Source: Thermoproteota archaeon
GTDB taxonomy: Archaea; Asgardarchaeota; Njordarchaeia; Njordarchaeales; Panguiarchaeaceae
NCBI GenBank assembly: GCA_024720975.1
Contig: JANJXX010000002.1
Span: forward strand, 64,001-128,000
Direction of reading: 5' to 3'
Length of the DNA: 64,000 nucleotides
The notes under the pieces are model-generated. The model had not been told where the DNA came from, did no database searches, and saw nothing but the letters and a program-made list of their open reading frames with translations. The number at the start of each line of letters is the position of its first letter. Position 1 is the stretch's first letter. The position numbers were made by a program, and so were the translations under genes. Below are positions 4,277 through 28,629 of the stretch, in pieces.

Positions 4277-4456
4277 ATGTACAAAATTTTGGGGAAATTT
4301 CGAAGACTAGCAATGCTCGTACTGGATAACAAAGGATCACAACTAGTTGAGGAAGGATTATTAATTGGACTGGCAATGATCCTATTCGTCATTATCGTAG
4401 GATTCATTAATGGTATTGTCGATTGGATAAACAGCCTTTCAAGTGTGATATTATGA
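4277..4456 (+). CDS. Flp-like / class III signal peptide prepilin (59 aa)
   Basis: Not in ORF track. MYKILGKFRRLAMLVLDNKG|SQLVEEGLLIGLAMILFVIIVGFINGIVDWINSLSSVIL; basic leader, KG cleavage site, Glu at +5, hydrophobic helix; GGTGA SD upstream; stop overlaps next ATG (ATGA). Confidence 0.75.
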   Translation: MYKILGKFRRLAMLVLDNKGSQLVEEGLLIGLAMILFVIIVGFINGIVDWINSLSSVIL

Positions 4457-4734
4457 TACGATACCAGTCATTAATTCTAAAAGCAGCAGAAAATCCAGAT
4501 AACATCATTAAGGAATTGCTAGACAATCTTCTTAAACTACCGAATGCCTTAATGTCATTCATAGCTGGAGTTATTCTCTTCATGCTTTATCTACTCCTAT
4601 TTGTTGGTATATTGGTAACAATCTGGGGAATCCTAGAATGGCTATCAGGTTGGAATGAAACTTCTGGTAAGAGAAACCTAATCAAGGGTACCTTGTTGAT
4701 ATTGATTGCTATAATTTTGGAGATCAGACTATGA
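4453..4734 (+). CDS. Small two-TM membrane protein (TrbC/VirB2 pilin-like pattern)
   Basis: Start at 4453 by ATGA coupling; two hydrophobic segments joined by WLSGWNETSGKRNL. Confidence 0.55.
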   Translation: MIRYQSLILKAAENPDNIIKELLDNLLKLPNALMSFIAGVILFMLYLLLFVGILVTIWGILEWLSGWNETSGKRNLIKGTLLILIAIILEIRL

Positions 4735-5342
4735 ATTCTCTACCTGATGTAGCAAGTATTGCCGTTATCTTAGCAACTGCTTCTATCTTTTCGATAGATT
4801 GCAAGATACTTTGGAGCAACTTAGGAAAACTAAAGTTTTACATTGACAGGCATGTGATTAGTCAGTATAGAATCGACATTGATATCATTTTAGCATTAAT
4901 TTCTACAAAGACTCGCTCAGTTAAATTCGCGATAGAATCTTTAGACGAGTTCAATGTACCAGAGAGCCTCAAAAGTGAACTCATAACACTAATAAATGAC
5001 ACAATTTTTCTAAAATACAAGGGTAAGAATCCAGAGAAAAAGTTTCCGCTGTTATATTCGATACTCACCTCAGGAGCGATTCATCCTTTAGGAAACATGC
5101 GGGAGGATGCATATTTCGCTTTAAAGAAGGAGTCTATAGAAAAGCAGCTTGCATCGTTAAGTGAGTTTGAGGACACAATGAGTTTTTACTTGTTTTTATT
5201 GTTTCTGCTTCCAATGATAATATATCAACTAGTATTCTTGACTGGAGCCCTCACACTTTTTATAGCTGTGGCGTTTTTCCACTTAATTATTTCCGTATAT
5301 CAGCGAAGAAAAATAAGCATGAGTAACAGAAATAGTAGTTAA
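4731..5342 (+). CDS. Membrane protein, possible divergent TadB/TadC (T2SS-F) platform protein
   Basis: LPD..IA.IL N-terminus, soluble middle, two C-terminal TM helices; ATGA-coupled downstream of pilin-like genes. Confidence 0.45.
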   Translation: MNSLPDVASIAVILATASIFSIDCKILWSNLGKLKFYIDRHVISQYRIDIDIILALISTKTRSVKFAIESLDEFNVPESLKSELITLINDTIFLKYKGKNPEKKFPLLYSILTSGAIHPLGNMREDAYFALKKESIEKQLASLSEFEDTMSFYLFLLFLLPMIIYQLVFLTGALTLFIAVAFFHLIISVYQRRKISMSNRNSS

Positions 5343-5360: not shown

Positions 5361-7010
5361 CTAAATTTCTTCTTCAGGCTCTTTTTCCCCTACCTCTGTT
5401 TCCTCCTTTTTGAGTTCAAAGGCTTCTTTTGCAGCTATGATATCATCTATTCGGAGCAGCATTATTGCCGCTTCAACAGCGGATTCGATAGCATTCTTTT
5501 TGACAACGTATGGATCAACGTATCCTAGCTGTATCATATCCGCTAATCTACCCTCTATAACATCAACACCGTATGTGTATTTACCTTGTGCATGGAATGT
5601 TCTTAACTTGTTAAGATCCTCAATTGGATCTAGACCCGCTGTCTCAATAAGTATGCTTGGAATCGATTCTATTGCATCGGCGAAAGCTTTAACCACTAGG
5701 CTTTGTCGCCCAGTTAGTTCTTTCTCGGCGATTTTTCTTAACTTTGTTGCTATCGCCATTTCAGGTGCTCCCCCAGCAGGAATTATCCTTGGATCTAACA
5801 TAACGTTTCTAACTCCATTAAGAACATCTTTTAGATTTCTTTCAGCTTCCTCTATAGTTAATTTAGAACCACCACGAATTAGAATAGACACTGCTCGCGG
5901 ATTCTTGCAGCCACGAATAAACAACATTGTTTCATCCCCGACTTTTTTCTCTTCGACGACATTTGCAAAGCCTAGTGCATTTGGACTTAGAAACTCCTCA
6001 TTCTGTATTATTTTTGCTCCTGTGGCTTTTGCAAGTTTTTCTATATCACTCTTCTTGACCCTCCTTACTGCTATTATTCCTTGCTTAGCTAAGTAATGCT
6101 GTACTACATCATCAATGCCTTTTTGGCATATGACAACGTTTGCACCTGTGTTTATTATCTTCTCGGCCATTTCCCTGAGTTTTTCTTTTTCCCAACGCAG
6201 GAGTGTATCAATCGATGTTTTTCCAGCAAATATATGAACATCCGCAAATTCACTCTTTTCAAGCTCTAGTGAGTAAGCAACTAGCAATATCTTTGCATTT
6301 TCGATTCTCCTTGGCATTCTGTGATGAACTATTTCTTTGTCGAGTACGATACCATATATCAACTCCGTATCTAGTAAATTACCACCTTCCTTCTTTTCAA
6401 TCTTTATTTCATCAAGTGGTATTATACGCTTTCCGTTTTCCTCATACATTATTGTTCTTATTGCGTCATAGGCTATATTTGAAAAGTGATCCGCGTATGG
6501 TGCTATGGCTTTGGATGCGATACAGGTTTTAGCGACTTTAAGAACATCTTCTCTTTTTTCCGGGTCGATTTTTATCGCTAGATCATTTAATATCTCTAGA
6601 GACTTCTTAAGAGCAAACTGATATCCGTCGATAATCTTAGTAGGATGAATATCGTTATCAAGTAGCTCCTCGGCTCTGCCCAATAACTCGCCAGCAAGAA
6701 CAACAACTGTAGTAGTGCCGTCTCCGACTTCTATATCTTGCGTCTTCGATAGTTTTGCTAAAAATTTCGCACCAGGATGTACAATATCTATCTCATCTAG
6801 TATCGCTGCACCATCATTACTAATAACAACATCCCCAAACTGGTCGATAAGCATCTTATCTAATCCTCGCGGTCCTAAGCTTGTCTTCATCATTCTTGAA
6901 AGCGTTGTTGCCGCCAGGATGTTGTTTCTGAGTGCCTCCGTGCCGTATGTTCTCCTCGTACCTTCTTTCAATACTAGAACGGGGATTGCTCTCTTCGCCT
7001 CGCTAGCCAT
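5361..7010 (-). CDS. thsA: Thermosome (group II chaperonin) subunit
   Basis: LGPRGLDKM, NDGAAIL, GDGTTT, GGAPE motifs. Confidence 0.96.
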   Translation of the reverse strand: MASEAKRAIPVLVLKEGTRRTYGTEALRNNILAATTLSRMMKTSLGPRGLDKMLIDQFGDVVISNDGAAILDEIDIVHPGAKFLAKLSKTQDIEVGDGTTTVVVLAGELLGRAEELLDNDIHPTKIIDGYQFALKKSLEILNDLAIKIDPEKREDVLKVAKTCIASKAIAPYADHFSNIAYDAIRTIMYEENGKRIIPLDEIKIEKKEGGNLLDTELIYGIVLDKEIVHHRMPRRIENAKILLVAYSLELEKSEFADVHIFAGKTSIDTLLRWEKEKLREMAEKIINTGANVVICQKGIDDVVQHYLAKQGIIAVRRVKKSDIEKLAKATGAKIIQNEEFLSPNALGFANVVEEKKVGDETMLFIRGCKNPRAVSILIRGGSKLTIEEAERNLKDVLNGVRNVMLDPRIIPAGGAPEMAIATKLRKIAEKELTGRQSLVVKAFADAIESIPSILIETAGLDPIEDLNKLRTFHAQGKYTYGVDVIEGRLADMIQLGYVDPYVVKKNAIESAVEAAIMLLRIDDIIAAKEAFELKKEETEVGEKEPEEEI

Positions 7011-7271
7011 ATTATATCACCCATTTCAGCTTTCTTGTAATCCCATTAGAAGTATTTAAGACTGTCTATTTACGACCGTCAGGTTTTTGAATGCTCTTGC
7101 AGAAAAACTTCCAAATCAAATTGATGCATTAAAGAGTGTATTAAACAAATAGCCAACAAATATCGTAGAAACCATAAGAGCTGTCTAGAATTGAATTTCA
7201 ACATTGAATAGTAAGAATATATTTGTAGGTGCTGCTGTTTCTTGCTAGGTGGAGTCTTTATCGAGTAAGAA

Positions 7272-7334
7272 AAACTCAGTGTAACTATGATTCTTCATCG
7301 CTATGCTCTGGCTTGCCGGGTTTTCATCATCGTG
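7272..7334 (-). ncRNA. Box C/D sRNA; D guide matches 23S rRNA helix 69
   Basis: Minus strand: C ATGATGA - AAACCCGGCAAGC - D' CAGA - C' ATGAAGA - ATCATAGTTACA - D CTGA; intergenic. Confidence 0.8.
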
Positions 7335-7501
7335 AAGTTCCAATACTCAAAGTTCATTTTATATTGAGTTTTTATCAGCGGGATTTTTTAGTGAGACAAA
7401 TATAAAATAATTTAAGCGATATAGTTTAATTTAGTGATGTGCACCTCACGCGTCACCTGAAACCTGAATGATTGACACTCGCATTTAAAATGTGATCGAA
7501 T

Positions 7502-7990
7502 ATGGCGGAAGATGAGTTAAAAGAATTAACTCCCGAGGAAATAGAAGCTTTAAGAACAATTTTCGCCAAGGAAGTCTCCGTAGGTCCTACCGAGGAAATC
7601 AAACTAATGGTTCATACTGAGTTGGAACAATTGTTATATAATAATGCCGACATACAAACTACACTACTGGTGGACTCTGCCGGCTTTCCAGTTGATTTTA
7701 TATCCAAACAAGAAACTAAACTTCAAGGAGAAGATTCCCTTATTATAGCTAGTGCTAACTTTTGGGGACTCTTTGCAACGGCAGAACGCGAAAGTTTAGG
7801 TATCAATCTAGGACACGTCAAAATGATAATCACCAGAACACAAAATGGTTTTATCTTTATAACAAAATGCGGGGAAAACTTTGCCCTAGTTGCGATAGTC
7901 AAGCCCCAAGCAAAATTAGGCGTCATCATGAGAGAACTCGAAGCAACGGCAAAAAGAATAGCTGAAAAACTGTCAGGATTCACCATATAA
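7502..7990 (+). CDS. Roadblock/LC7 (MglB-like) protein with acidic N-terminal extension
   Basis: LLVDSAGFPV, AERESLGINLG, AKLGVIMREL roadblock pattern. Confidence 0.85.
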   Translation: MAEDELKELTPEEIEALRTIFAKEVSVGPTEEIKLMVHTELEQLLYNNADIQTTLLVDSAGFPVDFISKQETKLQGEDSLIIASANFWGLFATAERESLGINLGHVKMIITRTQNGFIFITKCGENFALVAIVKPQAKLGVIMRELEATAKRIAEKLSGFTI

Positions 7991-8013
7991 TCTAGCTCAT
8001 GGTGCTCTAAATA

Positions 8014-9015
8014 TTAGATCTTTTCTGCTACAAAACCCAGATACCTCCCGATACTTTTTAGTATTGGCGCTTGCGATAGCATTTCATCAAACTTACATAG
8101 CACCGAATGAATTCTTAGAAACTTTCTCAACTTAAAATTCATGGGAAGCATCGAGAAAATGCTCCTAAATTGTGTTAATCTAAAGCCATGCATACTCAGT
8201 AATTTCTTAGTTTCTAGAATGGTGTAGAAGTGAGTGGGTATCTTCACAAAACCATTTTTTGTAGGAATTCTGATGAAAGCAAATGGCCTATCCGCATATT
8301 TTATAGTCTTAGAAAGCAGGGAAATGCTCCTGACAACCTTTATGATCCAATCAAGAGAGTATCTGTTAATAACTGTTCCTATAAAAACTCCCGCAGGCTT
8401 AATGACACGAGAAATTTCCTTAAATGCATGAGGATAAAATATCGAATGATCCAAGGCTCCAAATATTGCGAGGACGATATCAAACGTCGCACTCTTAAAA
8501 GGTAAGAACTCAGCTGGAACGCAAACAAAATCTACATTATCTAAAGATAAGGCTTTAGAGATTCTCTTTGCCTCAAACAGTGCATTTAAAGAAATATCCG
8601 CTCCCACAGCTTTAAACCTTACTTCATTATATGCAGTCCTGAGGTACTTAATAACGAGCCATAGTTCCCAGCCACTTCCACAACCAATGGCCAGAATTTT
8701 AATGTCCTTTGCCTTTTTATTTCTCATGAGATGATTTATCCCATGTAAAATAAGCCTTGCCTGCTGCTTCCTTAAGTACTTAAGCCAATCACTTCTTTGA
8801 ACACTCCAAGTATTTGGTGGAATCTTTCTGTATGCAATAATAATCTTCTTAAGATGCTTATGAAGAACCCGCGGATAAAGTATTGGAACACCCCCATGTA
8901 CCCTAAAAACCTCGTTCCTAGATCTTATATAACCACTTATGATCTCGTCACCGGATCTTCTTACACATAATTCATCAACCTGAAGCGATAAGATGTCAAT
9001 TAGCCAATCACGCAT
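8014..9015 (-). CDS. Class I SAM methyltransferase fused to an N-terminal Trm112-like domain
   Basis: ILAIGCGSG, GADIS, AEFLPF...FD, EISRVIKPAG; N-terminus WLIDIL...EIISG...VHGGVPIL. Confidence 0.8.
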   Translation of the reverse strand: MRDWLIDILSLQVDELCVRRSGDEIISGYIRSRNEVFRVHGGVPILYPRVLHKHLKKIIIAYRKIPPNTWSVQRSDWLKYLRKQQARLILHGINHLMRNKKAKDIKILAIGCGSGWELWLVIKYLRTAYNEVRFKAVGADISLNALFEAKRISKALSLDNVDFVCVPAEFLPFKSATFDIVLAIFGALDHSIFYPHAFKEISRVIKPAGVFIGTVINRYSLDWIIKVVRSISLLSKTIKYADRPFAFIRIPTKNGFVKIPTHFYTILETKKLLSMHGFRLTQFRSIFSMLPMNFKLRKFLRIHSVLCKFDEMLSQAPILKSIGRYLGFVAEKI

Positions 9016-9416
9016 CTAACGCCCCATTATGACTACTCTTTTCCGTTCAGTTGGATTTAATAAATGTATGGTATCAAGTAGGCTATTTAGATGCTTAATA
9101 TATCACCCTCAAATTGTTGGTAGTAACTACTGCTAAGGTCCCTCTAGCCATATAAGATATTGTTGACGTTTTTCTGACTGGATTACATGCTACATAAAAC
9201 AATACAGATTCATTCTATTTGAGGTTAATTACGCTTTGCTCTCTATCAACTACTATTATAATCGATTATAATCGATAGGCGATGTGACGGAAGGTATCAT
9301 CATAGGCTGAAAATCGGTAACGCAACAACTAATGATAAATTTATAAACTTTGAATATGTGGAATAACAGATATGAAGATCTGCGCTGCTAATATCATTGA
9401 AAGGTATACATCCTAA

Positions 9417-9501
9417 GCCCCGGTGGTGTAGTGGCCAAGCATCCCGGCCTTTCAGCTGAGAAGAAAGCCGGGGATCGCGGGTTCAAATCCCGCCCGGGGC
9501 A
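9417..9501 (+). tRNA. tRNA-Glu(UUC) with 11-nt intron at 37/38
   Basis: Acceptor GCCCCGG/CCGGGGC; anticodon arm CCGGC-CTTTCA[GCTGAGAAGAA]A-GCCGG; T loop TTCAAAT. Confidence 0.92.
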
Positions 9502-9534
9502 ATAAATCATTCATGAAATTGTTTAATAAGAGAA

Positions 9535-10167
9535 CTACAACCCTAGCTTCCTTCTTGTCTCAGATGAAAGGAGCTCTAACTCCCTTTTAAATGTTTCCGG
9601 AAAGATTCGAGCAAGTACCGCCAAACGACAAGCCTCCTGAAAAACGCGCTTGACGCCAAGTCCTTCGATTGCAACCGTGTTAAATATTGGGTGAGGTCCA
9701 CTTAGGCGCATAACCCTCAATAATACTACCTCAGGTAAAGCGTCCGGAAGGTCCCTCTTATTTAAGGCAATTATTATCGGAATTTCATTCCATTCATTTC
9801 CAAGAAACAATCTTAGCTCTTCAATACTGTCTGCGTTCTCCCGAAGAGCTTCGGGGTCGGAGTCTGCGACGAATACTACTGCATCAGCTCCTTTGATAAT
9901 TAGCCTCCGCTGAGTTTTGTGTCTTTTTTGACCCGGAACCGTGTATAGATCGAAGAATATGTTTCCTGAGGTTTTGAGTGGTAAGTAATCAAAGAATATT
10001 GTTCTCCCGGATTGATCAGCAACCATTCGTAGTCTTCCTTTTTTTAGTCCCTTGATTTTATTATAAAGCATTTTTAGCATGGTCGTTTTTCCGCTTAGGG
10101 ATGGTCCATATAGCACTATTTTAAATCTATAGTGCCCGTATTTGTCTTTAAATACCACTTCAAACAC
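9535..10167 (-). CDS. mglA: MglA-type small GTPase
   Basis: GPSLSGKTT, GRTIFFD (in-cis Arg finger), TVPGQ, NKRD. Confidence 0.88.
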   Translation of the reverse strand: MFEVVFKDKYGHYRFKIVLYGPSLSGKTTMLKMLYNKIKGLKKGRLRMVADQSGRTIFFDYLPLKTSGNIFFDLYTVPGQKRHKTQRRLIIKGADAVVFVADSDPEALRENADSIEELRLFLGNEWNEIPIIIALNKRDLPDALPEVVLLRVMRLSGPHPIFNTVAIEGLGVKRVFQEACRLAVLARIFPETFKRELELLSSETRRKLGL

Positions 10168-10285
10168 CTATTAGGGCAGTTCTGTGCAAATACACCATAC
10201 GAAACGACGTACCTCGAACTATCAGAGAACATTTTGAAAAATAAAATAAGATGGAAATATAGTTGTAAATGCTAGATTAAGGACA

Positions 10286-11443
10286 TTATAACGTTCTTAG
10301 AATTGAATCAGGTCCCACCTCCGACCACTCCTTTCGTGTCACAACTATCTTTTTGAAGGCTGGTATGGAGGCTAGAATTGAACCTCCGATGAAGACACCA
10401 TATATGCGCTCCTCTGGAGCTTCTACAGCGACTTTATCTCTAGCTTTCTCGGGTACTATTTCCTTAAGTTCTTTTTCGAGTCTTTGAGCGAAGTTTGGTA
10501 TCATAGTATTACCACCAGAAACTACGATGTTCGAGTACATTGACGGTCTTACGTCTATATCGCATGCGAAGATGCTATCAAGAACCAATTCATCTAGGGG
10601 CTTAGCCTCAAGCCCTATAAGCATTGGACTATACATTATTTCTGGCGATTGAAATCTTTCCTCTACTAATTCTATTACACGCCCATCTGGTAACTCATAT
10701 GTTGCTGCAACAGCCTTTGGAATTTTCTTTGCTTTTTCTAGCTCAGCTTTGTAATCGACAGCCAGATAACATAGCTTCTCTTTGATATCTCTTGCAATTT
10801 CCATTTCGGCGGATGATGTGAAGTATATCCCTCGCTTGGTAAGCAGTTTAGCTAAGTAGCGAGTAACATCACGCCCAGCAAGGTTGAGTCTTCTAACGGC
10901 ATGAGCCAGTAGATATGATTCCTGAACTGGGACTATATGCGTAACACCATCACCGCTGTCTACGACAAGTCCAGTAACCCTACCAGCAGCATAAAGAGAC
11001 AATATAGCTTGTGTAGCGACATAGAGCGCCGGAACACCGAAGGTTTCGAATAGGACCTCAGCCATGCGAATTCTATTTTCTTTTGGACTTAAGGGGGCTT
11101 CTGTTACTAATAGTGCCTGATCTTGAGGATTTGTCCTTAGCTCTTTATAGTATAAGTGATACATCAATTTTTCCCAAGCATCCCAGTCAGTTACAATAGC
11201 ATGTTCCAATGGCCAAACTAGCTGAAGAACGCCTCTCATATGAATCGCGTCACGACCAACATAATATTCCAGTGTCTCTGCTTCTGGCATGACTACGGTG
11301 TACTTAGGATATCCTACCACTGTTGGAAAAACTGTTCTCGGTGTATCATCACCAGCAAATCCAGCTTTTGTAAAACCCGTTCCTAGGTCTGCAACTACTG
11401 CTGGACGTTCGAGCTCCGGAAGCTTGTGTGATGCTGAACTCAT
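10286..11443 (-). CDS. Actin (Asgard/Lokiactin-like)
   Basis: DLGTGFTKAGFAGDD.PR.VFP, LEHAIVTDWD, LLVTEAPL.P, QAILSLYA.GR.TG.VVDSGDGVTH, YELPDG, SGGNTM, IGGSILAS; start placed at MSSASH. Confidence 0.96.
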   Translation of the reverse strand: MSSASHKLPELERPAVVADLGTGFTKAGFAGDDTPRTVFPTVVGYPKYTVVMPEAETLEYYVGRDAIHMRGVLQLVWPLEHAIVTDWDAWEKLMYHLYYKELRTNPQDQALLVTEAPLSPKENRIRMAEVLFETFGVPALYVATQAILSLYAAGRVTGLVVDSGDGVTHIVPVQESYLLAHAVRRLNLAGRDVTRYLAKLLTKRGIYFTSSAEMEIARDIKEKLCYLAVDYKAELEKAKKIPKAVAATYELPDGRVIELVEERFQSPEIMYSPMLIGLEAKPLDELVLDSIFACDIDVRPSMYSNIVVSGGNTMIPNFAQRLEKELKEIVPEKARDKVAVEAPEERIYGVFIGGSILASIPAFKKIVVTRKEWSEVGPDSILRTL

Positions 11444-11755
11444 CAAGATAAACACCCTTGAGCGCGTTTAATTATTCATGCTGTTCAATTGGATATCTTA
11501 ATTATTCCCCTTATAAAACAGATAAGAGGTTAATGTATTAAAACAATACTTACGTTATAACAATTATCAGACTAGAGCACCATAAACTTTTAATCATTAC
11601 AACTTTGTTCTCAATCCAAAGAGTAATTTCTATCGCATGACCAACTTTCTTCCCGGTAAGGGACAAGAAAACTTCATGAGAAAGAAATATTAGTTTATTA
11701 TTGTTGCGGTTAGTAGTACTAATTATTTTAGAATACTTCTGGAGTTTTCAATAGT

Positions 11756-13456
11756 TCATCTCATTTCTACGGCACTCCTGATTTCCTTTGCGAGCTCTCT
11801 AGTACGTGCAACAATGACGATATTTTTACCTAATCTTCTGATCCTTATCAAGTCGTTTGAGAAATCAAAATTGACCACTACTCTCTTATCTAAGATACTA
11901 TTAGCGATTTCTGCGTTAACATTACAAGCTAAAATCAATTTCTGGAGCTTTGATAGGTCATTTATGGCTTCAAGATTGAAAATTATACGAAAATCTTCGA
12001 GCAATTTATATGCTCGCTCCTCAAGATCTCGTATGCTATTGTGAGGAGCCCTTCTTATTTTTTCAATAAATGCCTCGACTTTATCTACAGTTAGATCCTG
12101 ACGAGACTCCATCTCGTTTAACTCCAGCTGAAATGCTCTCCTAGCTTGCTCTATGTAGCTTAGTACGTGCTCCTCTAGATATTTGTATAGCTCATTAATG
12201 ACCAAATCCCCCCTTCCAAATTCACCATGCGCCATCTTTTCTAGTTCTCTTAAGCAATCTAAGTAATTTAAATTTGAATTTCCAAAATGTTTGGTAAAAA
12301 TTTCTTTGAGTTCCTCTGACTCCGAGTTAAGTATGTGTTCTGCGAGAGCAAGTGCTTTAAGCCAAGCTCCTGGCGCCTCAAAAGATCCTATTTTAGTCTC
12401 TTTTAACCAGTTGGCATAACTTTTAAAGAACTCCCAAGGATTGCGATATTGACTTTTGACTAGTGGCTTTAATTCAACTCTATGCGCAAAGACATACGGA
12501 ACGGACCATAAAATGTCTTCTACATCAACTTTACTCATTCCTCTTATCCACGCCCGCGCTCTTGCATACGCAAACAGTGCAATTAGAGCTCTTTCATCGG
12601 GAGGTTCCTGAATCTTACTGCACGGCTCGTTTGCAAACTCACATTCCATACATGGGAGACGCATATATGAGGGCATTAAGTCCAGCTTACCAAGCTTGCA
12701 GATGCGCAAGGAAGTCAAAATCATAGTTCCAAGTAACTTGATATGCTCTGGTATTGTTACTGACGCTACGTCATCCCATATTTTCTCTAATTCTTCAAAT
12801 GATAGGACTTCAGGCATAGTGTCAACAATTGTAAATCTTCTGTAGGTTCTCTCGCTCTCTATCATCCTATCCAGAATGCTTTTGGATTCCCTGAGTCCAG
12901 GAAGTTCTATGTAGCAAGACCCTAAAAATCTCGATTTCAGGGCTCTGTCAATATCCCCCCGGAAGGGATTCATATCAGCAAAACAAATGTAGTCTGGAGT
13001 TTCAAAACGCAGGCCACCATATTCTATGTAACCCTCTTCTAGTAGGCTCAGGAGAGCATCTTGAACACTCTTACTAAAGCGATTTATTTCATTGATGAAC
13101 TTTATTCTAGCTGTAACTACTGGTCTCACTATTATATCCTCCTCGCCTTTTGTCAGTAATTTCACGAGATTTGTACTGACCAGAACCTTTTGAAGAGTTT
13201 TTTCAGGGGCTCCTATAACTATTCCTAGCGATTCTTTATTTTTTGATAATGCTCTACTTATGAGTCTCACTAGCGTAGATTTTCCTGAGCCTGGGAAGCC
13301 TACTAACAACACCTTGTTATTTCGTATAAGAATAGAAGCTATGATGAAACTTTTTATTGATTCGTCACTTGTGATCCACCTTTCAAATAGTTCCTTATAG
13401 AGCGCCTTTATCTTCTGGCGGTAATTTTCAATGACTTCAGAGAGGGTCATTTGCAC
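11756..13456 (-). CDS. MoxR-family AAA+ ATPase with helical C-terminal extension
   Basis: GFPGSGKS Walker A, FINEINR Walker B variant, DMNP, DRALKSRF, FAHRV. Confidence 0.88.
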   Translation of the reverse strand: MQMTLSEVIENYRQKIKALYKELFERWITSDESIKSFIIASILIRNNKVLLVGFPGSGKSTLVRLISRALSKNKESLGIVIGAPEKTLQKVLVSTNLVKLLTKGEEDIIVRPVVTARIKFINEINRFSKSVQDALLSLLEEGYIEYGGLRFETPDYICFADMNPFRGDIDRALKSRFLGSCYIELPGLRESKSILDRMIESERTYRRFTIVDTMPEVLSFEELEKIWDDVASVTIPEHIKLLGTMILTSLRICKLGKLDLMPSYMRLPCMECEFANEPCSKIQEPPDERALIALFAYARARAWIRGMSKVDVEDILWSVPYVFAHRVELKPLVKSQYRNPWEFFKSYANWLKETKIGSFEAPGAWLKALALAEHILNSESEELKEIFTKHFGNSNLNYLDCLRELEKMAHGEFGRGDLVINELYKYLEEHVLSYIEQARRAFQLELNEMESRQDLTVDKVEAFIEKIRRAPHNSIRDLEERAYKLLEDFRIIFNLEAINDLSKLQKLILACNVNAEIANSILDKRVVVNFDFSNDLIRIRRLGKNIVIVARTRELAKEIRSAVEMR

Positions 13457-15083
13457 TCACTGTGCTCTGGGAGATTCTGGTCAGTTCTCTTATGATAATT
13501 TCTATCTCCTCGCATTCTGTAATATTCGGGGGCAAAATTATCACTGGAATGTTAAGAGTTTTTAATACATCCTCAGTTTTTTCCCAGAGCTTCTGAGTTA
13601 TAGCAAAAAATACCAAGATTGATTTCTCTCTAACATTCATTAAACTGTTTATTACCTCAGGAAACTTTATGTCATATATTGCCGTGTCTGTGATTATAGC
13701 TACCAATGCCCTATCATACAAAGAAGATAAGTGATTATCTACTACACTAAGGACATTCCTGATGTTAGTACCTCCTTCAGAGTCTAGCCTTAATATTATC
13801 TCTTCAATAGCGTCATAATTAAATGTAGGTGGCACTCCTTCCCAAGCACCCGAGGAGAATGTTGATAATCCCACAGACATGCCATACTTCTTAGCAATTT
13901 CAACTAGAGCCATACCAACATCTATTGCACGCTCGATAGGATCGTCACTCATCGATCCACTTGTATCTATAACTAACTCCATATGTCTAATTGATCTCTC
14001 CAACGAGTTTAGGTCGCCGCCAATTTCACGCAAATCCTGAAGTGTTGATACATCAGGTATTACGCGACCAAACGTATCTGCTGAGATTTCTATGTTCATC
14101 TTCTCTTCATCATCTCCCATATACCATTCACAAAATCCATACCTTGAGGTTTGTGGTTCTATCTCGATTATTTTTTCTTCTATCAAAGAGAGAATAGCTC
14201 TAATGCGCGCCCTCCTAGCAGCGGCAAGGTATCTCCTCCTATTTAACATCTTCTGGAGAATAGTTTTGTCTTGAGAAAATGCGGGCTCCTTGATTGGCAG
14301 CTTGCCTATTTCTAATTGCTTATCGAGTTTCTTTGCTACCTCTTTCGCGAAGTCATAGTCGATTTCACTTAATTGCTCCATTTCCTGTAAGCTTATAGGA
14401 ATACTATCACTGTTCATTACTTCATTCGCAGAGATTGGTATCAGATACTTTCGTAGTTCCCTCTCGTGGAGAGACCATGGATCTAGAGTATCGATTTCTG
14501 CTAGTAGCTCCCTAAAGAAGATTTTAGCCTTAGCGTAGAGTGGCATGTCTGCTAGGGCGACATTTATTATGCGCATTGTCTTACTCGAAATTTTTCTCCC
14601 TAATACGAATTCATAGAATTCTCTAAGAATGCTTCCTAGGGGCGTGCTAGATGTTGGCTTTGATTTAAGAATTCCTTCTATTGATTCCTTAACAATAGAG
14701 CTAATATGTTTTTGGTTTGATAGTTTGGCAAAAATTACAAAAAGGCACAAGACAGATAACAATGATCCATGTACCTCACTACTATAATTGCCGAGAGTCC
14801 TTCTTGCAGCAGCTAAAATTATCAGTCGATTTAGCTCTGTCGCAGGAAGGATACTGTGATACCCTAAACCCAGGAGAAGAAAGTACTTGTTAAAATCGGG
14901 GAGCTTTGTTCCCTCTGGAGGTTCTGGTAGTAATATTGTACCCCACTGTGTGTACCATGCAGATTTGATTGAGTCGACTTTTATTACAAAACCAGGAAAT
15001 AGGTTATACAATCTGGAGACTTTATCAACGATTTCCTTGAGCTCACTACAATTTATTTCATCTATTGTGTAAAATTCTTTCAT
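13437..15083 (-). CDS. VWA-domain protein (MoxR partner)
   Basis: C-terminal MIDAS DTSGSM, GGTN, ITD; overlaps MoxR start. Confidence 0.88.
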   Translation of the reverse strand: MKEFYTIDEINCSELKEIVDKVSRLYNLFPGFVIKVDSIKSAWYTQWGTILLPEPPEGTKLPDFNKYFLLLGLGYHSILPATELNRLIILAAARRTLGNYSSEVHGSLLSVLCLFVIFAKLSNQKHISSIVKESIEGILKSKPTSSTPLGSILREFYEFVLGRKISSKTMRIINVALADMPLYAKAKIFFRELLAEIDTLDPWSLHERELRKYLIPISANEVMNSDSIPISLQEMEQLSEIDYDFAKEVAKKLDKQLEIGKLPIKEPAFSQDKTILQKMLNRRRYLAAARRARIRAILSLIEEKIIEIEPQTSRYGFCEWYMGDDEEKMNIEISADTFGRVIPDVSTLQDLREIGGDLNSLERSIRHMELVIDTSGSMSDDPIERAIDVGMALVEIAKKYGMSVGLSTFSSGAWEGVPPTFNYDAIEEIILRLDSEGGTNIRNVLSVVDNHLSSLYDRALVAIITDTAIYDIKFPEVINSLMNVREKSILVFFAITQKLWEKTEDVLKTLNIPVIILPPNITECEEIEIIIRELTRISQSTVSANDPL

Positions 15084-15107
15084 AGCTCAGAGAACCATCT
15101 CTGATGA

Positions 15108-16286
15108 TTACTTACATGGAAGTGCAATATTACCAACGCCTATGGTGTTCCCAATACCTAATATGATAACCTTACCTTCACTCGGAACCTCCTCAATTAT
15201 TATCCTTTTAACTACTTCACACGCATTATAAACCGCACTTAGTAATGTCTCACTTAGAGGAGTTAGAGCCTCTACGTAGTTCTCCTTTATCACAACTGCA
15301 TAAAGAGGAATTTTATATTTGGAGGTCCAGGATTCTATTCTGTACTTCTCGGGACCTGGGTCACCTATAGCAGCACCAACCCCTACATCAACTTTTCCAG
15401 TATTCTCCGACTCAAGACGAAGCGCCGCATCGACTGTAATAATTAAATTGACATCTCCTCCGATTTTCTCAAGAATCTTTTGTAAGAAGCGCCCAGGATA
15501 TCCAACTTCACTTCCTGGACCCTTTGCCTTGACAGCTAAAACATATCTGCCCTCAAACTCAGAGGAACTATAGGCTATTTTGAGATCCTCATCGACTTCA
15601 ACTATATCTCCGAAGAAATGGAGCGCTACGAGAGCTCCCACACTATCTCCTATAGGCACACCCTCCACGAAGCCCTTAAGCGCATCAAAATAGCTGAGAC
15701 AGAGCTCTCTAATGAATGGCACTAGAAGTTTCAGTTGCAGAAGATAGTAGATGTTCTTAGTTCGGTATCCAACTTCGTAAATATGAGATGTTATCTTCCA
15801 CAGGTATCTTATTGCAGCTGCTGCTTCTAGAGCGCTTTCTAAATTTTTTTGAACGCGCTCAGGAGCGCTAGGAATTATTTTTTGTGCTATGTTTCTTAAT
15901 CTACTACGCCTGACATCTAATATATGTTCAAGCCTACTTAGAATTCCTGTAGGATCTATCGTTACTGGGTATATTAAGAAGCTATTTATGATTTCATCAA
16001 TCCACTTATTTACTTTAATGAACTCTTTGGATTTTACTATTTCATTAATTGCTGCTTCGTCAATATCTTTTGACGTTATGTTCCACCTATGCACTAGAAT
16101 TAAGCGCATGAATGCTCTCTTTGAAAGCTTTTCGTACAGCGTTATTTCACTGATAAACGACCTTAAGCTCCATATAATGAGCTGGGTTTGTATCTCGTTA
16201 AGCAGAAATATTAACATTAGGAATATCATAAGCGATATCATATAATCTACACTAATTTGTATGAATGACATTTGCAGAAACACCAC
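15108..16286 (-). CDS. DUF1512 family protein
   Basis: N-terminal TM; PIGDSVGALVA, GPGSEVGYPG, TVDAALRLE, GIGNTIGVG. Confidence 0.85.
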   Translation of the reverse strand: MVFLQMSFIQISVDYMISLMIFLMLIFLLNEIQTQLIIWSLRSFISEITLYEKLSKRAFMRLILVHRWNITSKDIDEAAINEIVKSKEFIKVNKWIDEIINSFLIYPVTIDPTGILSRLEHILDVRRSRLRNIAQKIIPSAPERVQKNLESALEAAAAIRYLWKITSHIYEVGYRTKNIYYLLQLKLLVPFIRELCLSYFDALKGFVEGVPIGDSVGALVALHFFGDIVEVDEDLKIAYSSSEFEGRYVLAVKAKGPGSEVGYPGRFLQKILEKIGGDVNLIITVDAALRLESENTGKVDVGVGAAIGDPGPEKYRIESWTSKYKIPLYAVVIKENYVEALTPLSETLLSAVYNACEVVKRIIIEEVPSEGKVIILGIGNTIGVGNIALPCK

Positions 16287-20917: not shown

Positions 20918-21140
20918 TCTAATCTCCTGATGATAGCGATAGTGATCAGGACATTATATGTTGATATTTGCCCTAATAAAAACCTCAATAATAAACAAAA
21001 TTATAATGAACTCCATCCTTTAAAAATAGATGGAGAATGCACATTTGTCGTTTGGCTAGAGATTGCGTATTATCCAGGTAACACTCTCGAGTATGCTAAG
21101 GTTTTAATGCGTTCCCATTTCCAAATGAAATGTGAATGAA

Positions 21141-22145
21141 ATGCCCGAGGAGAAAATAAAACTACTTAGGTGCGAGAGCTTAGAAGAAACTATTCGATAC
21201 CTAAAATCATCTGATATACGTGATGATTCCAAGCAGTACATTCTCATGTTCATTGATGAGCTTAAAATAAAGGGTTTCAGTCAGTTTAGGATAATGGCTT
21301 ATGCTCTTACATTAATAGAGTTCGCAAAGATTGTGAACAAGAGCTTTAATGAGCTTACAGCTGCAGATTTCAGATACTATGTTAATGTTCTGCTAAACGA
21401 AAAACACAACAAACACAGTACTATTAGGGAAAAAATGATGCGCATAAGAGTTTTCATGCGGTGGCTTTTAGATCTTCCGCCAAGAACGACTCCTGACCCA
21501 ATGAAATGGTTTTTCACTATAAGCCCTAAAGCTACTAAAGGGAATAAAATTCTAGAAATTCTAGAGAAAGTAATCGACGACTACGAATATAATGCGCTAT
21601 TGAATGCGGCTAGGAGGTTGAGAGATAAAGCCCTTTTACAATTCTTATATGAGACGGGATCGAGAATTCTAGAGGCATTAGAGGTTCGTATCAAGGACGT
21701 TAACGTTGAAGAGAACTACGCAATAGTTGGCGGAGGAAAACGATTAGTTCCGATCGTAAACTCTGAATGGGTTAAAAAGTGGCTTGAAGAACATCCTCAA
21801 AGGCATTTACCAGAAGCTTACCTGTTCTGTAGTTTAAGGAACCCTAAGAAACCCCTCAGTTATCCTGCTGTAAGAAGGCTTCTAAAGCGGTTAGCTAAAA
21901 TTGCTCATCTCAAAAAGAGAGTTACCTGCCACATGTTCAGGCATACACGCGCAACACTTCTGGCGAAATTCGGCGTTTCACCTTATGCAATGAACCAAGT
22001 GATGGGTTGGAGCGCCTCAACGAAAATGTGGCAGGTTTATTTACACATAACACAAAAAGATGCCCTGCGAGAAATTCTCGAAAAATTCAGTAGACGCCAT
22101 GGCAATTCCGCAGAAAATACGACAAGAACCGACAAATCCACTTAG
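21141..22145 (+). CDS. Tyrosine recombinase/integrase
   Basis: ETGSRILE (R), HMFRH, MGW, VY (Tyr); N-terminal SAM-like helices; 59 bp upstream of tRNA-Leu. Confidence 0.9.
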   Translation: MPEEKIKLLRCESLEETIRYLKSSDIRDDSKQYILMFIDELKIKGFSQFRIMAYALTLIEFAKIVNKSFNELTAADFRYYVNVLLNEKHNKHSTIREKMMRIRVFMRWLLDLPPRTTPDPMKWFFTISPKATKGNKILEILEKVIDDYEYNALLNAARRLRDKALLQFLYETGSRILEALEVRIKDVNVEENYAIVGGGKRLVPIVNSEWVKKWLEEHPQRHLPEAYLFCSLRNPKKPLSYPAVRRLLKRLAKIAHLKKRVTCHMFRHTRATLLAKFGVSPYAMNQVMGWSASTKMWQVYLHITQKDALREILEKFSRRHGNSAENTTRTDKST

Positions 22146-22527: not shown

Positions 22528-23019
22528 ATGATCGTGAGAAGAATGGTTGACACTGCCGAGCTAGATAAAAGGCTTCAAGAAATTTATGATGAATTAGATA
22601 AAGCTGTTAGAGAAATCGCTGAGAAGATAGGAAATGTCAAGCTTGTGGTAGCCTCTGTTTGTGGAAATCCTGTGGCCAGTTATTCCGATTCACCTTTAAG
22701 TGTAGATGAACTCAACGCAATCTCAAGCTTGTTGGATGGAACTCTTGAGGGACTCCAGACTCTTTTTACGCAAGTTTTAAGACTAAATTTAAGCTTTGAA
22801 AATGATTTCTTATTTCTTGAGAGTCCAGATTCAATACTAGTCCTCCTCAACATAAGTGGTGCATCACTATTAGTCCACGCAAGCAAACCCGTCCTACTCG
22901 GAACCGTGCGTGCAGTTATCAAAAGCTATCTGCCAAAGATAAAAAGACTTCTTGATGAACTTCAGAATCTCCAAAACAGACTTCTTGCCGTTGAAGCCCT
23001 CAGAAAGAAAGAAGTTTGA
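22528..23019 (+). CDS. Roadblock/LC7-like protein with flanking amphipathic helices
   Basis: VVASVCGNPVAS, AISSLL, PVLLGTVRAVIK. Confidence 0.7.
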   Translation: MIVRRMVDTAELDKRLQEIYDELDKAVREIAEKIGNVKLVVASVCGNPVASYSDSPLSVDELNAISSLLDGTLEGLQTLFTQVLRLNLSFENDFLFLESPDSILVLLNISGASLLVHASKPVLLGTVRAVIKSYLPKIKRLLDELQNLQNRLLAVEALRKKEV

Positions 23020-27426: not shown

Positions 27427-28629
27427 ATGGGAATAATTATAAGACCAGAGAGTTTAGAGCACACTTTTGTTCCTGATAGACTTCCCGCTAGAGAGGAACT
27501 TCGTTACCAACTCCTCTCCAAAATCATGGACTTCTTTTCTAAGCAATCGGGAGCTGGCTTTAAGGGCATCTATATTTATGGGGGCGTAGGTTCTGGAAAA
27601 ACAGTGCTCTCCCGCCGAGTTGCAATGGACCTCAAAGCGAAATTCGGTGATGCCCTAGATATTTGCTATGTCAACTGCCGATTTTCTAGAAGAGTGTATC
27701 GCGTGCTCGCACAAATAGCATCACAAATATCACCATCGCTTCCCCGGCGCGGTTTATCTAAGGATGAGTTCCTGGAATTAATATTTCTTGCTACTATGGA
27801 AAGAACGAAAAAACTCTTAGTAATACTTGATGAAATAGACTCGCTATTTTGGGGAGCTGAAGGAGATAAAGCTACGGATTTTCTGTATGCCCTATCTAGA
27901 TACGTCGAGCGAACCCCCTCTGGTGACTTACGCGTTGCAGCACTAAGCATAAGCAGAAGCGAAGAAGTGATTCATAAGTGGCTAGATCCTGCCACGCGTG
28001 CTTCATTCATACACGAGAAAATTTTTATGAAACCATATAACCCTAATGAGCTCCTAGAGATTCTTAAGTATCGAGTAGAACTCGCATTTAAACCCAATTC
28101 TATTAGCGATGAAAATATACGATATCTCGCCAACTTTGTTGCAAATCAGGCATCGGGAAATGCACGGATTGCAATAGATCTTCTACGACTTTCAGGAGAA
28201 ATAGCAGAACAACAAAGAGCATCTGAGATTAAACCTGAGCATATAAGGGTAGCTATAGAAGAGTACGCGCTACTACCTACGCTGGATCTAGAAAAATTGA
28301 TGGGACTTGAATTACACAAGCTTCTCGTTTTACTATCAGCAGTCCGAGCGCTTAAGAATTCTGATAAAGCTTACGTGACTAAAGCCATTGCACAACAGCA
28401 CTATAGAGAAATCTGCGCTGAATATAATGAAAAACCAAGAAAATCAACACAAATCTGGAGATACCTAAAAGAAATTCATCATGAGCTTAGTGGAATCGTT
28501 GAACTAGAGGTTAGTGGAAAAAACCAACGCGGACGCTCAACTAGAATCTTAATAAATGCTCCTTTAGAAGTTTTTGAGAAAAGTATTATGAAGGTTCTTA
28601 GGATGAAACTTCGCCAGGAGAACCTATAA
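27427..28629 (+). CDS. cdc6: Orc1/Cdc6 family replication initiator
   Basis: FVPDRLPARE, GGVGSGKT, ILDEID, GNARIAIDLL, C-terminal winged helix. Confidence 0.93.
   Translation: MGIIIRPESLEHTFVPDRLPAREELRYQLLSKIMDFFSKQSGAGFKGIYIYGGVGSGKTVLSRRVAMDLKAKFGDALDICYVNCRFSRRVYRVLAQIASQISPSLPRRGLSKDEFLELIFLATMERTKKLLVILDEIDSLFWGAEGDKATDFLYALSRYVERTPSGDLRVAALSISRSEEVIHKWLDPATRASFIHEKIFMKPYNPNELLEILKYRVELAFKPNSISDENIRYLANFVANQASGNARIAIDLLRLSGEIAEQQRASEIKPEHIRVAIEEYALLPTLDLEKLMGLELHKLLVLLSAVRALKNSDKAYVTKAIAQQHYREICAEYNEKPRKSTQIWRYLKEIHHELSGIVELEVSGKNQRGRSTRILINAPLEVFEKSIMKVLRMKLRQENL

Follow-up and report, generated by a model that had tools for sequence, protein, structure and literature searches.

The window analysed here is a stretch of 64,000 nucleotides from an archaeal genome (GenBank assembly GCA_024720975.1, contig JANJXX010000002.1, positions 64,001 to 128,000 of the forward strand), in which an actin gene is followed by the gene for an MglA-type small GTPase, with the genes for two roadblock proteins lying not far away. 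The host genome (G000; 1.36 Mb, 81% complete) belongs to the Njordarchaeales and has matches in hot-spring metagenomes; the genus that carries the actin-mglA pair consists of hot-spring and vent archaea. The order has been placed inside Asgard (PMC12411855) and has also been described as chimeric or TACK-like (PMC12222021), so its position is debated. An earlier note on this DNA had proposed a dedicated module in which actin and the GTPase are co-transcribed and a roadblock acts on the GTPase. We compared five species of the genus (G000, the window genome, and G001, G002, G003, and G004) and surveyed a wider sample of 121 Asgard genomes, in which one family (f9) is over-represented and kin are not independent.

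The actin gene (10286..11443, minus strand) encodes a protein of 385 amino acids (aa) that passes the Pfam Actin cut-off (E 6.5e-113), as the earlier note had read it, with intact nucleotide-binding motifs, and it was the sole actin found in G000. The spacer behind it (10159..10285, minus strand) contains a U-rich tract at 10249-10237 and an AGGTG before the start at 10158, and leads to the GTPase gene on the same strand (9535..10158, in an open reading frame (ORF) open to 10167), whose product has 207 aa. The strand had been called correctly; the gap of 118 bp claimed at the time counts to a GTG at 10167, and the start is probably the GTG at 10158, giving 127 bp, because the form on record has 207 aa, close homologs have the same length, and AGGTG stands ahead of 10158. 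A 210-aa form had no match in the protein collection.

By its motifs, its homologs, and its modelled structure, this GTPase is a true Group 1 MglA. The MglA signatures noted earlier were located at 10008-9988 (GRTIFFD) and 9942-9928 (TVPGQ). The P-loop GxxxxGK[T/S] is present (G18-K24-T25, invariant in the alignment), the G4 motif [NT]KxD reads N133-K-R-D136, and the G3 motif, T73-V-P-G-Q77 instead of DxxGQ, has the form TVAGQ in most other Asgard orthologs. The intrinsic arginine finger R52, which adjoins the G2 threonine T53, and D57 are also intact, and together with TVPGQ and NKRD they agree with the published definition of Group 1 MglA, to which such a finger belongs (PMC4316618). The best solved relatives by sequence were the MglA proteins of Thermus (E 5e-43) and Myxococcus (E 2e-34). 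An AlphaFold2 (AF2) model with a predicted local distance difference test (pLDDT) score of 91.5 gave a best Foldseek E of 4.6e-21, the top 14 matches being MglA (E 5e-21 to 1e-15) and Arf-like proteins coming next at 5e-11. An extra C-terminal helix (187-205) is common to most Njordarchaeales orthologs, those of family f4 excepted. In a tree with four bacterial MglA sequences, the archaeal ones came out as a single clade, in which the Njordarchaeales subclade had a support of 99, and on a bacterial comparison of this size a recent transfer of mglA from thermophilic bacteria is not favoured. A related-locus search with MglA as the query returned nothing. Second MglA1 paralogs were seen in G004 (L044, G004:C17:7770-8390, 75% identical) and in family f3 (L045-L047, about 50%), with neither roadblock nor actin neighbours. 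At G000:C25:91036-92124 and at L050, an MglA-derived domain is fused to a C-terminal domain; the one in G000 is without the P-loop lysine and threonine and is a possible pseudo-GTPase.

In each of the five species of the genus, mglA borders the 3' end of actin. The two genes stand in tandem in G000, G003, G004, and related assemblies and tail-to-tail in G001 and G002, and since the tail-to-tail form recurs in further independent assemblies, an assembly error behind the convergent orientation was rejected. Five of five is the background rate in the genus, because most gene pairs likewise stay adjacent: pairs adjacent in a relative were also adjacent in G000 in 135/169 cases for G004, 50/51 for G003, 11/12 for G001, and 6/6 for G002, so that 80-100% of neighbouring gene pairs are kept. 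Orientation was preserved in 130 of the 135 conserved pairs. A flip is thus among the rare changes, and it should not befall a pair that shares one transcript, so an actin-mglA operon is not supported; where the genes are tail-to-tail, as in two of the five congeneric species and in more assemblies, the co-transcription proposed by the earlier note does not occur. The U tract in the spacer looks terminator-like by eye (putative), and every tandem locus in the comparison has U tracts behind the actin stop. In one metatranscriptome, from a relative that is 90-95% alike, actin (10292-11456) and part of mglA (9662-10088) were on different contigs, others covered the roadblock gene at 7502 and the thermosome gene, and none bridged the actin-mglA spacer; as one study with contigs only, it was given no weight on co-transcription. 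A scan for sigma-70 promoters and terminators stayed at chance level, with a bacterial model that is wrong for archaea.

No such adjacency was seen in other families of the Njordarchaeales: mglA adjoins PCNA/L7Ae in f3 and in a deeper-branching relative and has other places in f2 and f4. None of 78 non-genus actin loci (flank up to 6 kb; 71 with at least 1 kb downstream) held MglA, and a handful held Rab-like GTPases at varying positions, while no actin was found in the 45 Asgard mglA loci inspected. Among the matches listed for the 121 genomes, no MglA-actin pair except that of G000 lay within 20 kb, 50 weaker MglA matches standing outside this comparison, and in seven genomes with both genes on one contig they were 150-810 kb apart. 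Across lineages, same-strand adjacency did not rise above background as it would for a conserved operon. The synteny check that had been set beforehand therefore turned out negative beyond the genus, and the idea of a dedicated actin-GTPase module, with a conservation within the genus that equals the background rate, loses its footing. The adjacency is most likely due to chance, a lineage-specific gene shuffling that has been carried along by within-genus synteny. Reading it as an operon would mislead, and the locus alone does not show a link to actin.

Across Asgard, mglA usually lies among roadblock genes, in agreement with the roadblock (MglB-type) regulation that had been taken as the model. 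MglA1 was found in 113/121 genomes and in 48/48 genera. We classed roadblocks by their place at mglA as UP2 (short), UP1 (mglB, directly upstream), and DN1 (downstream). The MglB class (UP1), likewise found in 113/121 genomes, has 55-70% identity between most Asgard lineages and lies at most 4 kb from mglA in 59 of 100 genomes among the matches listed for both; these 59 genomes span 12 families. Roadblocks adjoin mglA in 40 of the 45 loci inspected. The Baldrarchaeum order (L188:2683-5808) is roadblock (94 aa), roadblock (155 aa), mglA, roadblock (135 aa), and cis-prenyltransferase, with a further divergent roadblock in the cluster. UP1, the 155-aa class, resembles Myxococcus MglB in its acidic C-terminal helix (PMC6785124), and the best PDB match of one member was Thermus MglB. 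In Pfam, the UP2 and UP1 proteins of Baldrarchaeum score above the thresholds of LAMTOR5 and MAPKK1_Int, which is no more than a hint of a Ragulator-like assembly. In f5, f7, f12, f16, and other families the cluster has broken up, in many cases with the short roadblock still in place, and at E<=1e-20 no MglB-class roadblock was found in the sample's five Njordarchaeales genomes. By analogy, the system is most likely a spatial switch of the MglA/MglB type. We found no earlier description of the conserved roadblock-mglB-mglA-roadblock cluster, or of how widely it is spread, in a search that did not reach most subscription papers, Klinger et al. 2016 among them. Over L195-L237, the order short roadblock, mglB, mglA, roadblock, and cis-prenyltransferase is conserved, often with a divergent fifth roadblock gene.

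Roadblock 1 of the window (7502..7990, plus strand; 162 aa with an acidic N-terminal helix) passes the Pfam Robl_LC7 cut-off (27.4 bits against 23), and it matched PDB 9jue (E 2e-9); no paper citing PDB 9JUE was found. Its family is closest to DN1 (hhalign 135 vs 60-78 for the other classes), the class scores and the tree agreeing, and it did not prove orthologous to the roadblock directly upstream of mglA, so it is not of the MglB-position class. The nearby roadblock of the earlier note is thus a real one, placed where it cannot share an actin-mglA transcript: its gene lies on the strand opposite actin and mglA, behind a convergent tRNA-Glu gene and a methyltransferase gene. It tracks with the methyltransferase gene, and that of roadblock 2 tracks with the cdc6 region. 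Roadblock 2 (22528..23019, plus strand; 163 aa, diverged) had also been announced, and has a roadblock fold by AF2 and Foldseek with no match to a roadblock Pfam family. The model reached a pLDDT of 92.5, and the top Foldseek match was M. xanthus MglB (6hjm, E 3e-7), other roadblocks being nearly equal. Its orthologs in f3 and f4 score best against UP1 (44-50 bits), a tree joins its family to UP1 and Thermus MglB with weak support (82), and orthologs are kept in f1, f3, and f4, as is MglA. The C-terminal helical extension is short and basic here and acidic in relatives and UP1. Judging from sequence and model, roadblock 2 is probably a displaced descendant of mglB (class UP1). In no Njordarchaeales locus inspected was mglB adjacent to mglA. 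Some 5 kb to the left of the window lies a gene (G000:C19:59068-59430) for a diverged 120-aa UP2-like roadblock (E 6.7e-5); G004 and G002 have counterparts of it. All four cluster components appear, from their sequences, to be present in G000, in dispersed form.

From the observed family membership, intact catalytic motifs, distribution, and gene context, we give a probability of roughly two-thirds (0.68) to the reading that the actin-mglA adjacency reflects genus-specific shuffling and that the GTPase is a vertically inherited Asgard MglA1 with roadblock (MglB-type) switching. Its ancestral partners would be roadblocks in the gene order UP2, UP1 (mglB), mglA, DN1, and the cluster would have come apart in this lineage, leaving the 22528 protein as the MglB descendant, the 7502 protein as the DN1-like member, and the UP2-like gene to the left of the window. 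The action of a roadblock as GTPase-activating protein (GAP), the identity of that roadblock, and a spatial role are what we infer from MglA/MglB of M. xanthus and T. thermophilus, the bacterial structures behind the mechanism being those of PMC6785124. MglA alone would hydrolyse GTP slowly; a roadblock dimer would bind its beta-2 strand and swing R52 and Q77 into the active site, and MglA would be switched off where roadblocks concentrate. The acidic helix possibly speeds nucleotide exchange. MglA-GTP would mark a site in the cell and recruit effectors there, actin being one candidate.

Several observations weigh against this reading. Actin and mglA are immediate neighbours in all five species, were apparently inverted as a two-gene block relative to their flanks at least once, and are the two most conserved real genes between G000 and G004 (89% and 82%, in a ranking of about 215 shared orthologs with a median of 54.5%). 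The 22528 protein itself, too diverged to be placed by its own sequence, scores just 8.5 bits against UP1, and a genus-only profile prefers DN1. Several 7502-type paralogs in f2 and f3 adjoin Rab-like GTPases, and as G000 has some ten small GTPases and five or six roadblocks, the pairing is not fixed by context. Separately from these objections, a complex prediction for MglA with both roadblocks and GTP scored 0.02, a "no answer" that is evidence neither way. Three operon-type roadblocks lie within 15 kb of mglA, for which a naive binomial estimate, post hoc and ignoring core-gene clustering, gives about 2e-4; they may be a relic of the operon, against which the position of mglA by PCNA/L7Ae in f3 and the deeper relative speaks. 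At six loci in f2 and f3 (L242, L244, L245, L246, L248, and L251), a Rab-like GTPase gene stands directly beside a DN1-like/7502-type roadblock gene. A 255-aa gene beside the Rab-roadblock pairs of f3 was considered as DENN and rejected, having no Pfam support.

A direct link between MglA and actin, drawn by analogy, is unlikely in our estimate and owes little to this locus, and so it is with its wider form, in which MglA1-GTP directly binds, positions, or remodels actin throughout Asgard and selection has kept the pair together in the genus. In M. xanthus, MglA-GTP sediments together with MreB polymers, an interaction that MglB breaks up (PMC4508894). This binding and the top conservation of both genes in the genus make actin a reasonable effector candidate; the five-of-five adjacency and the near-universal presence of the two genes in Asgard (actin in 108/121 genomes, MglA1 in 113/121) point the same way. 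Searches for gelsolin, profilin, and a response regulator, which are also in its favour, gave no match in the 81%-complete G000, that for profilin being without a positive control. However, the adjacency was not found outside the genus and is tail-to-tail in two species, the co-occurrence of two near-universal genes is uninformative, and their conservation does not demonstrate contact either. MreB and actin are distant homologs and need not have the same binding surface. We also doubt, somewhat more firmly, that MglA1, MglB, and two roadblocks form an ancestral Asgard polarity switch, a Ragulator-like hetero-roadblock platform directing actin, e.g., in protrusions; if true, small-GTPase control of a true actin would be older than Rho/Rac, and the gene pair would be its sole genomic trace.

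It is quite improbable that the dispersed roadblocks serve Rab-like or Rag-like GTPases and that the Njordarchaeales MglA is an orphan with a new partner, maybe via its C-terminal helix. The failure to find the otherwise well-conserved MglB class in the five genomes of this order, the 35% identity of the 22528 protein in the genus vs 82% for MglA, and the six loci with 7502-type paralogs beside Rab-like GTPases would all suit such an orphan, and functional ones are known, e.g., Bdellovibrio MglA and SofG (PMC4316618). On the other hand, orthologs of the 22528 protein are retained along with MglA in f1, f3, and f4, and the beta-2 strand motif and catalytic residues of MglA are intact. The proposal with which the earlier note began, that actin and mglA form one transcription unit for which the 7502 roadblock supplies the GAP, is the least credible and strikes us as very improbable. 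The convergent orientation in G001 and G002 and the U-rich tracts after the actin stop stand against it, as does the 7502 gene, which lies on the other strand behind the convergent tRNA, follows the methyltransferase gene rather than mglA, and has its ortholog outside the examined actin region in G001 and G002. What it has on its side is the shared strand and 127-bp gap in G000, G003, G004, and related assemblies and the alpha-2 helix of the 7502 roadblock, which is well conserved in the genus.

With MglA/MglB of M. xanthus and T. thermophilus (PMC4316618, PMC6785124), the system shares the fold, the arginine finger, the TVPGQ G3, and the NKRD G4, and in most Asgard lineages an MglB-type roadblock gene precedes mglA. 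It differs in that mglA of the window is an orphan by gene order, the Njordarchaeales protein has the extra C-terminal helix, and two or three further roadblock genes are present in Asgard clusters. A search of the 81%-complete G000 for a receiver domain (RomR-like) gave no match. At the focal adhesions of Myxococcus, MglA is linked to MreB (PMC4508894); here, too, one cell has both a filament protein of the actin family and a Group 1 MglA, but the filament protein is a true actin, not MreB. Several roadblocks tied to one small GTPase, together with the LAMTOR5/MAPKK1_Int scores, recall Ragulator-Rag, whereas the GTPase, unlike those of Ragulator-Rag and of the Asgard roadblock-Rab-DENN operon (10.1101/2020.10.19.343400), is MglA1 and not Rag/Rab. 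No DENN gene was seen in the mglA clusters inspected, unlike in that operon.

MglA1 is treated as a recognised Asgard group of the Ras superfamily in 10.1101/2024.02.28.582541, and PMC13408092 presents a Thorarchaeota MglA-MglB pair modelled with AlphaFold3. PMC10933270 describes MglA-like proteins in MK-D1, states that the GTPase genes of MK-D1 are generally not in operons with roadblocks, and matches no Asgard GTPase to its regulator from gene order. The remark on MK-D1 fits the split cluster in family f12, where the members are present in dispersed form; because this family falls with Promethearchaeota, the cultured Lokiarchaeia probably belong to it. For the question of how actin and protrusions are positioned in Asgard, the roadblock-mglB-mglA-roadblock cluster provides a defined four-protein set for biochemistry. 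If the cluster acts on actin, small-GTPase control of actin would have existed before eukaryotes. The value of the locus lies in the near-universal Asgard MglA/MglB/roadblock module rather than in a co-transcribed actin switch.

The actin of the window shares about 51-57% identity with the conserved actin in other lineages of Asgard and 70-91% with that of other Njordarchaeales, except f4 at 52%. It resembles the Lokiactin type of Asgard actin in being single-copy and conserved at that identity, and differs in that the Njordarchaeales actins formed their own long branch beside, not inside, the other actins in an unrooted quick tree; a published analysis has Panguiarchaeaceae actin nested in the lokiactin clade (PMC12411855). 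Two tandem divergent actin paralogs, 44-46% identical to the window actin, were seen at L028:284-2601 (G001:C23), and in the quick tree they fall together with the actin of the genus. Upstream of actin, genes for DUF1512, vWA, and MoxR AAA proteins (11756..16286, minus strand) form a genus-level syntenic block outside the module; in G001, moxR and the vWA gene are gone from the corresponding place.

On the other side of the pair, the tRNA-Glu(TTC) gene (9417..9501, plus strand; ARAGORN; Rfam tRNA 54.1 bits), convergent with mglA and ending 33 bp from its stop, has an intron of about 11 nucleotides (nt). Next to it lies a gene for a class I S-adenosylmethionine-dependent methyltransferase (8014..9015, minus strand; Pfam Methyltransf_25), an unrelated neighbour of mglA and a long-term neighbour of the 7502 roadblock, whose ortholog it adjoins in f3 as well. 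Single-gene inversions are frequent in the genus (window 5361-11443 against L051-L054): the genes for thermosome, roadblock, methyltransferase, and mglA are each inverted in place somewhere. Neither the ends of the inversions nor the surroundings of cdc6 showed anything in a repeat search. An orc1/cdc6 gene (27427-28629) and xerA (21132-22145) lie 10-17 kb from actin in a region rich in core genes, and a replication origin may be near; no origin repeats were found. Two small membrane-protein ORFs at 4423-5342 had no Pfam match, the first being kept in G003 and G004 and the second in G003. At the place matching that of the tRNA-Glu gene, G003 (L053:9138-9213) and G002 (L147:2870-2945) have a tRNA without an intron, and that of G004 (L054:5266-5356), with 91 nt, is probably intron-bearing, which indicates gain or loss of the intron inside one genus.

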